A DNA stretch of 64,000 nt from Neisseriaceae bacterium (GTDB lineage Bacteria; Pseudomonadota; Gammaproteobacteria; Burkholderiales; Neisseriaceae), in assembly GCA_016864895.1 (NCBI GenBank), contig CP046107.1, positions 997,741 through 1,061,740 of the forward strand. The letters are read 5' to 3'. The notes beneath the pieces are model-generated. The model did no database searches and was not told where the DNA came from. It saw only the letters and a program-made list of their open reading frames with translations. Of this stretch, positions 27,174-32,545 are shown in pieces. Position 1 is the first letter of the stretch. Every line of letters begins with the position of its first letter. The translations under genes and the position numbers were made by a program.

Positions 27174-27662
27174 ATGAGAGTAGCACAAAAAGGTTTTACC
27201 TTAATTGAGACAATGGTCGTATTGGTCATTATCGGGATAGTGGCAGCGTTCACACTTCCTAAATTCTATGAATATATTGCTAAAACGCAGGTAGCAGAAG
27301 GCATTCAAATGGCTACCAATGCTAAGATAACGATTACAGATAATTTGCAAAATGGACGTTGTACGGATCCCTATGCACAGGTCAATAATACGATTACTGG
27401 ACGTTATGCTCAGTTAGTCATTTCAGATGACCCAAGTAAAGATAAAGGCTCCTCTATCGAAACGAATACCAATGGTTGTGTGGTGACAATTACTTATGGT
27501 CGTGGTGTTGATGCTAGTGGTAACTCATCAGGTGCTAGTAAGTATATCAATAACCAAGCCTTGGTATTGAATATGTTGTACAACGGTAGCTATGAAATCG
27601 ATGGAGCTACAACCCTACCTCTTCAATATAGACCAAAGTCTTTAGTATCAACTTTCAAGTAA
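27174..27662 (+). CDS. Type IVa pilin (short, canonical; candidate major subunit)
   Basis: 162 aa. Prepilin leader MRVAQKG followed by FTLIETMVVLVIIGIVAA (Phe1, Glu5). Two Cys residues. RBS AGGAGA. Confidence 0.9.
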   Translation: MRVAQKGFTLIETMVVLVIIGIVAAFTLPKFYEYIAKTQVAEGIQMATNAKITITDNLQNGRCTDPYAQVNNTITGRYAQLVISDDPSKDKGSSIETNTNGCVVTITYGRGVDASGNSSGASKYINNQALVLNMLYNGSYEIDGATTLPLQYRPKSLVSTFK

Positions 27663-27677
27663 AAAAATACTGATGTT

Positions 27678-27702
27678 CACCCCGTCCTTCTGGTCGGGGG
27701 TG
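27678..27702. other. G+C-rich hairpin CACCCCG-N10-CGGGGGTG between pilin genes 1 and 2
   Basis: It shares the core CCCCGTCCTTC..GG.CGGGG with the left-end hairpin of the TnpB element (3755-3774). No T-run follows. Confidence 0.5.
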
Positions 27703-27738
27703 TACTAGGTGAAACTGACAAATGTTTAGGAGACAAAT

Positions 27739-28371
27739 ATGAAAGAATCACAGAAAGGCTTTACCTTAATTGAGGTAATGGTCGTATTAGTCATTATCGG
27801 GATAGTGGCAGCGTTCACACTTCCTAGATTTTATGAATATATTGCTAAAACGCAGGTAGCAGAAGGCATTCAAATGGCTACCAATGCTAAGATAACGATT
27901 ACAGATAATTTGCAAAATGGACGTTGTACGGATCCCTATGCACAGGTCAATAATACGATTACTGGACGTTATGCTCAGTTAGTCATTTCAGATGACCCAA
28001 GTAAGGATAAAGGCTCCTCTATTGAAACCAATACCAATGGTTGTGTGGTGACAATTACTTATGGTCGTGGTGTTGATGCTAGTGGTAACTCATCAGGGGT
28101 TAGTAAATATATCAATAACCAAACCTTGGTATTGAATATGTTGTACAACGGTAGCTATGAAATTGATGGAGCGACAACGCTACCTATTCAATATAGGCCA
28201 AAATCTATAGCACAAGCTTTAGGTAATAGTAATCAAGCATCATTAGAGTCCGATGAAGTTAAGGCGGAATCACTACTGCCAGTTGTAAGTGAAACTACAC
28301 CAGTAGCGGTATCAGAATCAGATAAAGTGACACCTACAGAAGAGGCATCAACACCGGCAGTAAGTGAAACT
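27739..28371 (+). repeat. Segmental duplication copy A (identical to 30346-30978)
   Basis: By eye I found no mismatch from the ATG through the pilin head, linker and first repeat unit. Upstream sequences differ. Confidence 0.85.
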
Positions 28372-29652: not shown

Positions 29653-30345
29653 TAGTACCGATTATTAAGGTTATTTGATGAGATATGTGTAAGGAATTTT
29701 TCGATACCAATGATTGTAAGAAAATCGATGTCATTTGTACCTAGTCCTAAAGCTTAAGTGTTGTAGTGAACTACTCCTATGAGTTAAGGCTATATCACAA
29801 AAAAAAGAGCAACAGGTCAAAGGTTTCTTAAACTGTTTCACTTGTTAATGATTAGTAGTTCTATTTGTTTAAATTGGCACCATATTCCACTCTTTTGGCT
29901 GATGCCTAAGGGAAGGAATATGGTGTCAGTTTATTGAAAAAGTTTTAATCTAAATTTATTATGAAATAATATAAAAATTAAGTCTGGGTTATTTCTACCC
30001 ATTGACTATTTTCAGAAAGACTTTATGTCATCTTGAATACTACCCAGTCTCTTAAATCTTATATAAATTATAAATCTGATAACAAATTTATATTAATCAA
30101 AACCAGATTGAAATAAATAGTGAATGCCTAAATTATTACTTTGTATTGAATATTTACTCAAATTTTACTCAAAAAATGATATGAAATGATTACGATGAAA
30201 ATTGTAATTGGTCAAACATATTTAGTTCGTTTTTTAGTTCGTTTTGCCAATTTAGTTTTTAAGGTTACTATTGCCGCTCCTATTTAGGAGCGATTTATTA
30301 GCAGTTTTTAATTAGTTTCTTTGTTTTTTGAATAAGGATTGACGT

Positions 30346-30978
30346 ATGAAAGAATCACAGAAAGGCTTTACCTTAATTGAGGTAATGGTCGTATTAGTCA
30401 TTATCGGGATAGTGGCAGCGTTCACACTTCCTAGATTTTATGAATATATTGCTAAAACGCAGGTAGCAGAAGGCATTCAAATGGCTACCAATGCTAAGAT
30501 AACGATTACAGATAATTTGCAAAATGGACGTTGTACGGATCCCTATGCACAGGTCAATAATACGATTACTGGACGTTATGCTCAGTTAGTCATTTCAGAT
30601 GACCCAAGTAAGGATAAAGGCTCCTCTATTGAAACCAATACCAATGGTTGTGTGGTGACAATTACTTATGGTCGTGGTGTTGATGCTAGTGGTAACTCAT
30701 CAGGGGTTAGTAAATATATCAATAACCAAACCTTGGTATTGAATATGTTGTACAACGGTAGCTATGAAATTGATGGAGCGACAACGCTACCTATTCAATA
30801 TAGGCCAAAATCTATAGCACAAGCTTTAGGTAATAGTAATCAAGCATCATTAGAGTCCGATGAAGTTAAGGCGGAATCACTACTGCCAGTTGTAAGTGAA
30901 ACTACACCAGTAGCGGTATCAGAATCAGATAAAGTGACACCTACAGAAGAGGCATCAACACCGGCAGTAAGTGAAACT
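30346..30978 (+). repeat. Segmental duplication copy B (identical to 27739-28371)
   Basis: Same as copy A. Confidence 0.85.
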
Positions 30979-31887
30979 GCTCCAGTAGCGACACCAAAGT
31001 CTGCTGAAGTGACACCTACAGAAGAGGTATCAAAACCGGCGGTAAGTGAAACTGCTCCAGTAGCGACACCAAAGTCTGCTGAAGTGACACCTACAGAAGA
31101 GGTATCAAAACCGGCGGTAAGTGAAACTGCTCCAGTAGCGACACCAAAGTCTGCTGAAGTGACACCTACAGAAGAGGTATCAAAACCGGCGGTAAGTGAA
31201 ACTGCTCCAGTAGCGACACCAAAGTCTGCTGAAGTGAAACCTACAGAAGAGGTATCAAAACCGGCGGTAAGTGAAACTGCTCCAGTAGCGACACCAAAGT
31301 CTGCTGAAGTGACACCTACAGAAGAGGTATCAAAACCGGCGGTAAGTGAAACTGCTCCAGTAGCGACACCAAAATCTGCTGAAGTGAAACCTACAGAAGA
31401 GGTATCAAAACCGGCTGTCAGTGAAACTGCTCCAGTAGCGACACCAAAATCTGCTGAAGTGACACCTACAGAAGAGGTATCAAAACCGGCGGTAAGTGAA
31501 ACTGCTCCAGTAGCGACACCAAAATCTGCTGAAGTGACACCTACAGAAGAGGTATCAAAACCGGCGGTAAGTGAAACTGCTCCAGTAGCGACACCAAAGT
31601 CTGCTGAAGTGACACCTACAGAAGAGGTATCAAAACCGGCGGTAAGTGAAACTGCTCCAGTAGCGACACCAAAGTCTGCTGAAGTGAAACCTGTAGAAGG
31701 GTTATCAACATCAACAAGTGATAATGATCAAGTGGTACCAGAGTCTGATGAATTGGAATATACAGGAGAACCCAACATCAGAGCTGGAGGGAAGTGGGTT
31801 GCACACGAGAAAACTCAACTTCCAGCTTGGGTTGATAGTATTCCAGCTTGGATGAAGCCTTCTATGCATATATATCCTCGGAGATGA
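30346..31887 (+). CDS. Modular type IV pilin: same head + 11 x 25-aa repeats + a different unique 56-aa Trp-rich tail
   Basis: 513 aa. The N-terminal 207 aa are identical to pilin 2. Repeat array 30892-31716. The tail SDNDQVVPESDELEYTGEPNIRAGGKWVAHEKTQLPAWVDSIPAWMKPSMHIYPRR is unrelated to the pilin 2 tail. Confidence 0.85.
   Translation: MKESQKGFTLIEVMVVLVIIGIVAAFTLPRFYEYIAKTQVAEGIQMATNAKITITDNLQNGRCTDPYAQVNNTITGRYAQLVISDDPSKDKGSSIETNTNGCVVTITYGRGVDASGNSSGVSKYINNQTLVLNMLYNGSYEIDGATTLPIQYRPKSIAQALGNSNQASLESDEVKAESLLPVVSETTPVAVSESDKVTPTEEASTPAVSETAPVATPKSAEVTPTEEVSKPAVSETAPVATPKSAEVTPTEEVSKPAVSETAPVATPKSAEVTPTEEVSKPAVSETAPVATPKSAEVKPTEEVSKPAVSETAPVATPKSAEVTPTEEVSKPAVSETAPVATPKSAEVKPTEEVSKPAVSETAPVATPKSAEVTPTEEVSKPAVSETAPVATPKSAEVTPTEEVSKPAVSETAPVATPKSAEVTPTEEVSKPAVSETAPVATPKSAEVKPVEGLSTSTSDNDQVVPESDELEYTGEPNIRAGGKWVAHEKTQLPAWVDSIPAWMKPSMHIYPRR
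30892..31716 (+). repeat. Tandem repeat, 75-bp unit x 11 (coding, in frame)
   Basis: Same unit family as 28285-29484, including a recombinant unit type (Lys codon with the CTGTCAGT variant at 31401-31418). Confidence 0.95.
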
Positions 31888-32422
31888 CCAAGCGACCGAA
31901 GTCATGATATTGATGACCACATTAATATCGCTATCATACATTGTTTTGTACATAGGCCATTACCACTTTCTAGTGGTAATGTTAAGATGAGAGTATAGTA
32001 ACAATGGTACCAATTACAGAGGTTTTTGTCTTTAATCAAAAAGCAGAAGCTATCTCATACGAGTCATACTAATTATTTTCAGTTACTTTTTGATGCCACA
32101 TTATCCTCAATGCGGAAATTGTTTATGTATTGCATAGTATCTGTGACATGAACTAGATCTGCAACCATGATATTTTTAGTGGCGTCGATATCTTTGTGGT
32201 GTGAAACACTACACTCAACATATGTCTATTTTTACTATGGTAGGTCATAAGATCATGTGAAAATCAAGGATTGCCTAGATTCCATTTGAGATAATACCCT
32301 GAGGGAGGGAATGTGGTACCAGTTTATTGAAAAAGTTTTAGTCTAAATTTTAGATGAAATATATAAATAAATTAAGTTTGGATTATTTCATTTACTCAAA
32401 AAATGATATGAAATAATTACAA

Positions 32423-32545
32423 GATGAAGTTAAGGTAGAGTACCACTACTCACTTTAAATGAGAGGAATCAACTGGTGGGGTCAGAATCCACTGAAGTCG
32501 AAGATAAAGAGGGGGGTGTCACCGTCACTTATTCCAAGTGAAGTG
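32423..32545 (+). pseudogene. Decayed pilin linker / first-repeat cassette lacking the pilin head
   Basis: GATGAAGTTAAGGTAGAG...GGTCAGAATCCA...CCAAGTGAA aligns by eye (about two-thirds identity) to 28250-28375 (DEVKAESLLPVVSETTPVAVSES...). It contains stops. Confidence 0.4.

Follow-up and report, generated by a model that had tools for sequence, protein, structure and literature searches.

The pilin locus

Three co-oriented genes on the plus strand of contig CP046107.1, from a Neisseriaceae bacterium, encode the same type IVa pilin head, which in two of them is continued into a long stalk of tandem repeats and a small C-terminal tip. The cluster lies within a stretch of 64,000 nucleotides that was analysed as a whole and is called the window below. 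All positions are given in the numbering of this stretch, and the locus is read from one hybrid assembly. Gene 1 (27174-27662) codes for a short canonical type IVa prepilin of 162 amino acids, which appears in the list of open reading frames (ORFs) and lies above the Pfam thresholds for both N_methyl and Pilin. Gene 2 (27739-29652) and gene 3 (30346-31887) code for proteins of 637 and 513 amino acids, which run on for 480 and 356 residues past the head.

Gene 2 begins with the pilin head (27739-28209, residues 1-157), which is 94% identical to that of gene 1 and 100% identical to that of gene 3. The head is followed by a neck, a degenerate unit 0 of the repeats with the sequence AQALGNSNQASLESDEVKAESLLPV (28210-28284), by a stalk of 16 units of 75 base pairs (bp) or 25 amino acids each (28285-29484), and by a unique tail of 55 amino acids with two Cys (CKDSPDLVSC), which is predicted to form a small helical domain and ends with the stop codon (29485-29652). 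Gene 3 is comprised of the head (30346-30816, residues 1-157), which is preceded by an upstream region of its own, the neck with a stalk of 11 units (30817-31716), and a unique Trp-rich tail of 56 amino acids with the stop codon (31717-31887). Gene 1 ends, before its stop codon, in six codons that are homologous to the beginning of the neck in gene 2. Each of the three genes has a readable ribosome-binding site, AGGAG in the case of genes 1 and 2 and AAGGA in the case of gene 3. The site of gene 2 is located in the spacer of 76 bp that separates it from gene 1 (27663-27738), and these two genes are likely to be co-transcribed.

Most of this anatomy had been described in an earlier account made from the DNA letters alone, referred to here as the sequence-only reading. 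It listed three co-oriented genes with a leader of seven residues ending in Gly before FTLIE and fewer than a dozen differences between the heads, a gene 1 that stops after 162 residues, a linker of 25 residues, 400 and 275 residues of repeats with 4 Pro, 7 Ser/Thr, 4 Glu and 2 Lys in each unit, and unique tails of about 55 residues. The ORFs, the count of repeat units and the composition of the consensus unit agree with all of these statements, and 9 of the 157 head residues are found to differ. The range proposed for the cluster, 27174-32545, starts correctly at gene 1 but ends 658 bp beyond the stop codon of gene 3, in non-coding DNA that holds only two hairpins and an element of about 130 bp.

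The pilin heads

The leaders of seven residues end in Gly and are followed by FTLIE (MRVAQKG/FTLIE and MKESQKG/FTLIE), with Phe at position +1 and Glu at position +5. In Pfam, all three proteins score 35.6-36.3 bits with N_methyl (gathering threshold 21.2) and 34.9-36 bits with Pilin (22). The NCBIfam model TIGR02532 gives 35-36.4 bits in the three proteins against a cut-off of 16.3. The N-terminal methylation domain is therefore present above threshold in every one of them. The best match of the head in the PDB is FimA of Dichelobacter nodosus (3SOK; phmmer E 2e-27). An AlphaFold2 model of the gene 3 head, made with an alignment of 23 sequences, has a predicted local distance difference test score (pLDDT) of about 90 and consists of a helix at residues 10-58 and five strands. 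Foldseek places this model closest to FimA 3SOK, with a template-modelling score of 0.86-0.90 and 38-40% identity, and next to the PilA proteins of Acinetobacter and Pseudomonas. C63 and C102 are invariant across the 23 sequences of the clade.

Judged by sequence and by predicted fold, all three heads are those of globular, major-type type IVa pilins with a class III signal peptide. They are similar to FimA and to the PilA of Acinetobacter and Pseudomonas in head sequence, fold and short leader, and gene 1 has the size of an ordinary major pilin. FimA and PilA, however, end at the globular domain or at a glycosylated C-terminal Ser/Thr, and no repeat stalk has been described in them.

The head of gene 1 differs from that of genes 2 and 3 by 24 nucleotides, 14 of which are synonymous. 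Genes 2 and 3, on their part, are identical in DNA over 633 nucleotides. The identity begins exactly at the ATG, because the upstream regions are unrelated. An identity of 100% over 633 bp could be produced by short-read polishing, and the true locus might contain fewer or shorter genes if the hybrid Nanopore and Illumina data had been mis-assembled or over-polished. The genome was closed from Illumina contigs and Nanopore data with manual joining (10.1101/867275), and no independent assembly of the locus was found. Nevertheless, an assembly artefact is very unlikely, since the copies differ in their flanks and tails, the diverged units of gene 2 are absent from gene 3, and the 24 differences of gene 1 are private to it. 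In addition, every junction is in frame, and a collapse of the assembly would shorten the arrays rather than make two distinct ones.

The repeat stalks

Tandem Repeats Finder detects two arrays of 75-bp repeats, one at 28285-29475 with 15.9 copies and 94% matches and the other at 30892-31708 with 10.9 copies and 96% matches. In the register of the protein, the neck of 25 amino acids is followed by 16 units (400 amino acids) in gene 2 and by 11 units (275 amino acids) in gene 3, and neck and stalk together measure 425 and 300 amino acids, respectively. The consensus unit is VSETAPVATPKSAEVTPTEEVSKPA. The array of gene 2 begins with four diverged units (1-4), which are followed by the near-identical units 5-16. 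Pro, Ser and Thr account for 14% each of neck and stalk, and Glu, Ala and Val for 15-16% each, and this region has net charges of -43 and -24 in genes 2 and 3, respectively. In the AlphaFold2 model of gene 3, residues 160-490 are without secondary structure and have a pLDDT below 50. The stalk is predicted from the model and the charge to be an intrinsically disordered, strongly acidic tether, which is in line with the extended and acidic character that had been expected of it. Pfam and NCBIfam give no match for the stalk. As an in-frame 75-bp array expands and contracts by recombination, the length of the stalk can vary.

Similar stalks are known from other surface proteins. The mucin-like and Pro/Thr-rich (PT-rich) stalks of adhesins and the PT linkers of secreted enzymes share with the stalk of genes 2 and 3 the abundance of Pro, Thr, Ser and Glu, the predicted disorder and the in-frame repeats that are prone to changes in copy number, but they are carried by cell-wall, autotransporter or secreted enzyme scaffolds and not by a pilin. 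A search of metagenome contigs with the repeats and the gene 2 tip returned a single match, a PT/E-rich linker on contig L008 of a JGI metagenome. It belongs to an unrelated secreted multidomain protein of 1,720 amino acids (ORF 1455-6617), in which PTAEVTPTEEITP repeats at about 5001-5250 are close to the EVTPTEE motif of the stalk. These repeats look like a convergent interdomain linker.

The C-terminal tips

The tails of 55 and 56 amino acids are mutually unrelated. When predicted by AlphaFold2 from its single sequence, the gene 2 tip folds into four short helices with a pLDDT of 80-90, and its two Cys flank the last loop. The structure prediction of heads and tails that had been suggested earlier thus yields a confident head, a disordered stalk, a small helical tip in gene 2 and a tail of low confidence in gene 3. 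Searches of Pfam and NCBIfam with the tails are empty, and Foldseek gives no significant match for the model of the gene 2 tip.

Coding character of the long frames

The coding character of the repeats and tails was assessed with codon log-odds built from the 31 long ORFs of the window, using segments of 55 codons as the unit. In frame, the repeats reach log-odds of +0.68 per codon, and the tails of genes 2 and 3 reach +0.38 and +0.43, respectively. Reference segments of real genes score 0.41 +/- 0.14, off-frame segments -0.92 and flanking intergenic segments -0.4 to -0.8, and the other frames of the repeat array score -1.0 to -1.5. Stop-free segments of 55 codons make up 0.6% of the local intergenic DNA. 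The near-identical core units are polymorphic at five sites, and three of these are third codon positions at which the change is synonymous. In the diverged units 1-4 of gene 2, the frame has stayed open and the amino-acid character has been kept. In their codon usage, the repeats and the two tails resemble genuine coding sequence. NCBI nr lists the gene 3 product as a predicted protein.

Two other readings of the same DNA were rejected. Read-through of the tails into non-coding DNA is ruled out by the codon usage and by the rarity of stop-free segments. The consensus unit can be read openly in one reverse frame, yet no reverse-strand ORF of 25 or more amino acids is listed across the arrays, and a gene on that strand was discarded as well.

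The DNA almost certainly stems from a member of the Neisseriaceae that lives as a bacteriocyte symbiont in the louse Hoplopleura acanthopus. The window has a guanine plus cytosine (GC) content of about 33%, and the closed genome of this symbiont, obtained from Nanopore and Illumina data, measures 1,607,498 bp at 33.4% GC (10.1101/867275; PMC11436785). The bacterium is an obligate endosymbiont with a genome that is being reduced and annotated pseudogenes, and decaying genes are common in it (10.1101/867275; PMC11436785). In a reduced genome of 1.6 Mb, the long genes might be a by-product of decay, that is, a 75-bp minisatellite that expanded in the 3' end of duplicated pilin genes, with long ORFs that are recent or have survived by chance and with proteins that are either not made or functionless. 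Pilin copies do decay in this genome, as is seen in P0047 (QRN40999.1, GKC53_02370), a frameshifted fragment of the pilin head of 71 amino acids that lies outside the window. Non-coding gaps of 700-950 bp surround the genes, the tails are orphan, and the exact sequence of the gene 2 protein, unlike that of gene 3, is missing from the protein collection. The consensus unit is open in two of the six frames, and a long ORF over the array is weak evidence by itself for this reason. Decay is nevertheless unlikely, though not negligible as an explanation: the repeats and tails score as typical coding sequence in frame where stop-free segments of the same length are so rare, the ribosome-binding sites are intact, the diverged units retain frame and composition, the gene 2 tip is predicted to fold, and analogous designs are maintained in unrelated genomes.

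Paralogues and probable origin of the stalk

A full-length paralogue of the heads, P0002 (QRN41816.1), is found in the same genome outside the window. It has 175 amino acids, is 78-80% identical and carries a hydrophilic tail of 19 amino acids, KSIAPVPDKNDNSDNSNAQIK. With the three genes of the cluster, P0002 and the fragment P0047, the genome holds at least five copies of the head. The sister symbiont from Polyplax serrata has a single pilin of 172 amino acids in an unrelated locus, which ends in KSIAPAPTDGDGDG.... In genes 2 and 3 the stalk begins right after a conserved 'PKSIA' (KSIAQALGNSNQ...), at the same point as the appendices of these relatives. Since appendices follow 'PKSIA' in both P0002 and the Polyplax serrata symbiont, a short hydrophilic C-terminal appendix would be ancestral in the clade. 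Given such an ancestor and the common starting point, the cluster would be a lineage-specific expansion in which the appendix has grown into a tandem array. On sequence comparison, the stalk appears to have grown from the short hydrophilic C-terminal appendix of the clade. A search of genome contigs with the head and neck returned a single match, an unrelated N-terminal one from Opitutaceae.

Several pilin copies per genome, signs of gene conversion and a host from the Neisseriaceae are features shared with PilE, pilS and the L-pilin variants of Neisseria. The silent pilS cassettes, however, are devoid of a start codon, a leader and the N-terminal constant region, whereas all three genes described here are complete and have a ribosome-binding site. 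Genes 2 and 3 are therefore not silent cassettes of the pilS type. The variable part is also placed differently from PilE and pilS, as it lies outside the globular head.

Related pilins with linkers and tips

Homologues were sought with the head alone; the full query of 637 amino acids from gene 2 was swamped by repeat words and gave no result. With the head as query, a full HMMER scan produced 10,736 matches at E <=0.001 among 1.84 billion representatives, and the best 150 of these matches were inspected. Ten of these 150 are long pilins of 257-543 amino acids (P0063, P0069, P0079, P0080, P0089, P0091, P0092, P0095, P0154 and P0161). In the ten proteins, the N-terminal head aligns end to end (about residues 3-157; phmmer E 1e-11 to 1e-13; 32-38% identity) and is followed by a linker of 18-79 amino acids with Pro/Thr motifs (PTDPTNP, TPPVTPP) and by a C-terminal module of 32-323 amino acids. 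Three of the modules match the Pfam family GP38 of phage tail fibre adhesins with E values of 5e-8 to 4e-15. Near-identical heads and linkers are combined with different modules in P0063, P0069 and P0089, in P0079 and P0091, and in P0092 and P0095.

The relatives' genes form clusters, too. On contig L002 (5913-11545), a tandem co-oriented trio codes for proteins of 472, 376 and 514 amino acids with heads that are 70-74% identical, and on contig L004 (8163-11614), a tandem co-oriented pair codes for proteins of 390 and 543 amino acids with heads that are 84% identical. The relatives' loci (L002-L005) are on metagenomic contigs of about 36% GC, and small ORFs without a Pfam match lie between the pilin genes. 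The occurrence of a head, a low-complexity tether and alternative tips in such clusters means that the same scheme recurs in other organisms. The sequence-only reading had known of no precedent for a pilin of this kind. That view is weakened, given that a Pro/Thr linker and a variable module are found behind the head in about 10 of the 150 nearest representatives, that such genes occur in tandem clusters, and that modular pilins have been described as a class (PMC8179133). It was right, on the other hand, to take the modular pilins as the frame, since a pilin head with an extra C-terminal part is what defines them.

Genes 2 and 3 have in common with these relatives a homologous full-length head, a Pro/Thr-rich low-complexity linker behind it and the arrangement as tandem co-oriented paralogues. 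The relatives are distinguished by a conserved Cys-containing neck (e.g. GDVCTKVADDPLVPTTG), a motif absent from genes 2 and 3, by linkers of 18-79 amino acids made of short PT, PTN or PPV motifs, and by tips that mostly measure 110-320 amino acids. The heads of their paralogues are 70-84% identical, as compared to 94-100% here, and a short pilin sharing their head was not observed within 10 kb of their genes. A tblastn search of the window found nothing similar to the relatives' tips, and Pfam GP38 has no match in genes 2 and 3. The tips of genes 2 and 3 were also considered as truncated remnants of the relatives' large modules. This origin was rejected, as tblastn against the window matched heads only and the downstream DNA is stop-dense with non-coding codon statistics.

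The constant N-terminal region, the variable C-terminal tips and the conserved downstream flank of genes 2 and 3, as well as the relatives' clusters in which the same head carries different tips with small genes in between, are reminiscent of CdiA-CT or MafB cassettes. The tips could then be small toxins mounted on a constant module, and the long pilins polymorphic effectors delivered by the pilus. Such a function is extremely unlikely. The tips of 55-56 amino acids match no toxin family, neither gene 2 nor gene 3 is followed by a potential immunity ORF, and the relatives' identifiable tips are of the adhesin type (Gp38). Moreover, an intracellular, vertically transmitted symbiont would have few competitors.

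Modular pilins have been surveyed by Raynaud et al., who found more than 1,200 of them with 264 architectures in monoderm and diderm bacteria and noted that this figure is too low, since modules that lack a database signature escape detection (PMC8179133). A location in the shaft is conceivable according to the same survey, as long as the linker has enough flexibility, and one IPR012902-IPR007932 architecture is found in its supplementary list (PMC8179133). Like the PilB (vWA) and PilC (lectin) proteins of Streptococcus sanguinis (PMC8179133), genes 2 and 3 encode an N-terminal pilin module with an extra C-terminal part. The modular pilins described so far have a recognisable functional domain and a short linker, whereas no domain is recognised in the tails and stalks of genes 2 and 3, and the linkers of 425 and 300 amino acids consist of tandem repeats. 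The pilin module of the described proteins also differs from the major pilin, whereas that of genes 2 and 3 is nearly the same as the adjacent short pilin. Genes 2 and 3 fall within the modular pilin concept but depart from its operational definition in two respects, the short linker and the domain signature. Three features are unusual here: the stalk is very long and built of tandem repeats, the tips are tiny orphans, and the head shares about 94% identity with that of a neighbouring short pilin. The second entry of the architecture mentioned above, IPR007932, is presumably Gp38.

The type IVb tip minor pilins CofB, TcpB and LngB are likewise large proteins, have extra C-terminal domains attached by a flexible linker and are displayed at the tip of the pilus. 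In contrast to genes 2 and 3, to which they have no sequence relationship, they possess folded domains of the beta-repeat and beta-sandwich types, initiate assembly as trimers and contain no tandem low-complexity stalk. In the literature searched, pilins with tandem-repeat stalks, with proline-rich linkers or with fusions to Gp38 or phage receptor-binding domains are not described.

Proposed assembly and display of the long pilins

Genes 2 and 3 are read here as intact modular type IVa pilin genes, the long products of which would be processed like that of gene 1, enter the pilus and display their tips. This reading is given about an even chance of being correct. According to the authors of the genome, type IV pilus genes have been retained in the Hoplopleura acanthopus symbiont (10.1101/867275). 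As the heads of genes 2 and 3 are nearly identical to the head of gene 1, the long forms could use the prepilin peptidase and the packing interfaces of the short pilin. They could also occupy its filament positions, as they hardly differ from it in the assembly helix and the globular surface. The long forms would be cleaved by the prepilin peptidase that acts on gene 1 and would take the place of the short pilin in the pilus, be it along the shaft or when assembly is initiated. Type IVa pilins expose their C-terminus on the surface, as is known from pilins that are glycosylated there. From this position, the disordered acidic tether would hold a tip of 6 kDa tens of nanometres off the fibre, within reach of such ligands as the tips may have. 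For a thin flexible chain with a tip of this size, the outer-membrane secretin would be less of an obstacle than for a bulky module, which would explain why the tips are small and the tether is long.

Besides the points given above in favour of decay, several others weigh against this reading. Shaft subunits with an appendage of 300-425 residues are not known to assemble or retract through a secretin. No genes for a prepilin peptidase, a secretin or an assembly ATPase turned up among the ORFs scanned in the window. When both tails were joined as a query, no homologue was found among 5.8 billion protein clusters at E values up to 10, and the tail of gene 3, modelled by AlphaFold2 with low confidence, contains a single short helix (494-498). 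The sequence-only reading had tentatively assigned the role of the major pilin that forms the fibre to gene 1. Its size is indeed appropriate, but the assignment is not established, as the same genome contains a fourth paralogue, P0002, in addition to the fragment P0047.

It is also conceivable that the long proteins are made but not polymerised. Unassembled pilins are inner-membrane proteins with a periplasmic C-terminus, and Pro-rich spacers with Glu and Lys are typical of proteins that span the periplasm. The long forms might remain anchored in the inner membrane with the stalk as an acidic, Pro-rich rod across the periplasm, similar to TonB or TolA, or they might be released in soluble form; the secretin may be impassable to a bulky extension at the C-terminus. 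This fate is distinctly unlikely. A mere anchor would have no need of a head that is almost identical to a complete major-type pilin, packing surfaces included, and the adhesin-type Gp38 tips of the relatives make sense outside the cell only. By a rough estimate, the contour length of the stalk is up to about 100 nm, which is far beyond the width of the periplasm.

The reading of the long forms as assembled, tip-bearing pilins can be extended further. The symbiont would then produce 'bottle-brush' type IV pili, in which shaft subunits with the head of the ordinary pilin carry mucin-like tethers of variable length (300-425 residues), possibly O-glycosylated, with interchangeable mini-domains at their ends. 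The locus would be an extreme member of a broader, so far undescribed class of tethered-tip pilins, whose genes stand in tandem paralogue clusters and whose constant head and Pro/Thr linker bear exchangeable tips, those of the Gp38 type among them. This extension is put forward as a tentative possibility.

If the long forms do assemble, a major-type pilin can take a disordered chain of several hundred residues past the assembly machine and on through the secretin. This would bear on the question of whether modular pilins are located at the tip only or also in the shaft, and on the cargo capacity of type IV pili. The related metagenomic genes suggest an overlooked and general way to diversify pilus adhesion, in which a constant head and a tether are combined with interchangeable tips, some of them derived from phage receptor-binding proteins. 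Surveys by domain signature would miss those versions that have low-complexity sequence or orphan tips only. For a young, uncultured bacteriocyte symbiont, a lineage-specific expansion of pilins for surface display is a candidate factor in host contact or transmission. As a lead, the PT-tethered pilins, with tips of the Gp38 type and others, may prove of wider use than the locus itself.

Possible glycosylation

Two types of pilin glycosylation were considered. Pilins modified by TfpO or TfpM have a Ser/Thr acceptor at the C-terminus, and the gene of the Wzy_C oligosaccharyltransferase is directly downstream of the pilin gene (PMC9829042). The C-terminal residues of the three proteins are K (gene 1), V (gene 2) and R (gene 3), and the ORF list of the window has no further ORF directly after any of the three pilin genes. 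Glycosylation of the TfpO/TfpM type is therefore not supported, as both the C-terminal Ser/Thr and the downstream oligosaccharyltransferase gene are lacking. The sole Wzy_C protein of the window, with 421 amino acids, is encoded on the minus strand at 23383-24648, 2.5 kb upstream of the cluster and beside gmhB and two acyltransferase genes. Its only match in the PDB is the O-antigen ligase WaaL (7TPG), and its size fits WaaL or an oligosaccharyltransferase of the TfpO/TfpM type.

The sequon for O-glycosylation of the PglL type is an internal stretch of low complexity rich in Ser, Ala and Pro (PMC4850263). The Ser residues of the stalk are flanked by Pro and Ala, and its composition resembles such sequons. 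By analogy, O-glycosylation of the PglL type is plausible for a stalk rich in Ser, Ala and Pro in a member of the Neisseriaceae. No Wzy_C protein of PglL size (550-600 amino acids) is encoded in the window.

Flanking sequences and neighbouring genes

The spacer between genes 1 and 2 contains a GC-rich hairpin at about 27678-27702, with a folding energy of -18.6 kcal/mol and no T-run after it. Its z value of -0.78 means that it is no more stable than shuffled sequence. Two hairpins with stems of 10 bp are found just 3' of the stop codon of gene 3 (31906-31929 and 31958-31981). As a pair they reach -28.7 kcal/mol with z = -3.9 versus shuffled sequence; a clear U-tract is absent, and they are candidate terminators or mRNA stabilisers. 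Sigma-70 and terminator patterns show no enrichment, and neither Rfam families nor tRNAs were found in the window.

The element of about 130 bp is located 3' of gene 3 (32298-32428). It is homologous to two segments, 29905-29995 and 30164-30199, of the non-coding region 3' of gene 2 (29905-30199). The two copies are 85-92% identical, and that of gene 2 is interrupted by about 170 bp. Rfam gives no match for the element, which is a leftover of the duplicated unit. AT-rich stretches of 700-950 bp that are free of ORFs flank the pilin genes (26227-27173, 29653-30345 and 31888-32680), and no recognisable gene remnants were found in them. These stretches fit ongoing gene loss in the symbiont.

About 800 bp 3' of gene 3 lies a co-oriented gene (32681-33064, plus strand) for a protein of 127 amino acids with a signal peptide, several Cys and no recognised family. 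Elsewhere in the window, an intact-looking OrfB/TnpB gene of the IS605 family is present within this reduced genome (3865-5091, plus strand), which codes for 408 amino acids with the HTH_OrfB_IS605 and OrfB_IS605 domains and a Cas12f1-like TNB domain.

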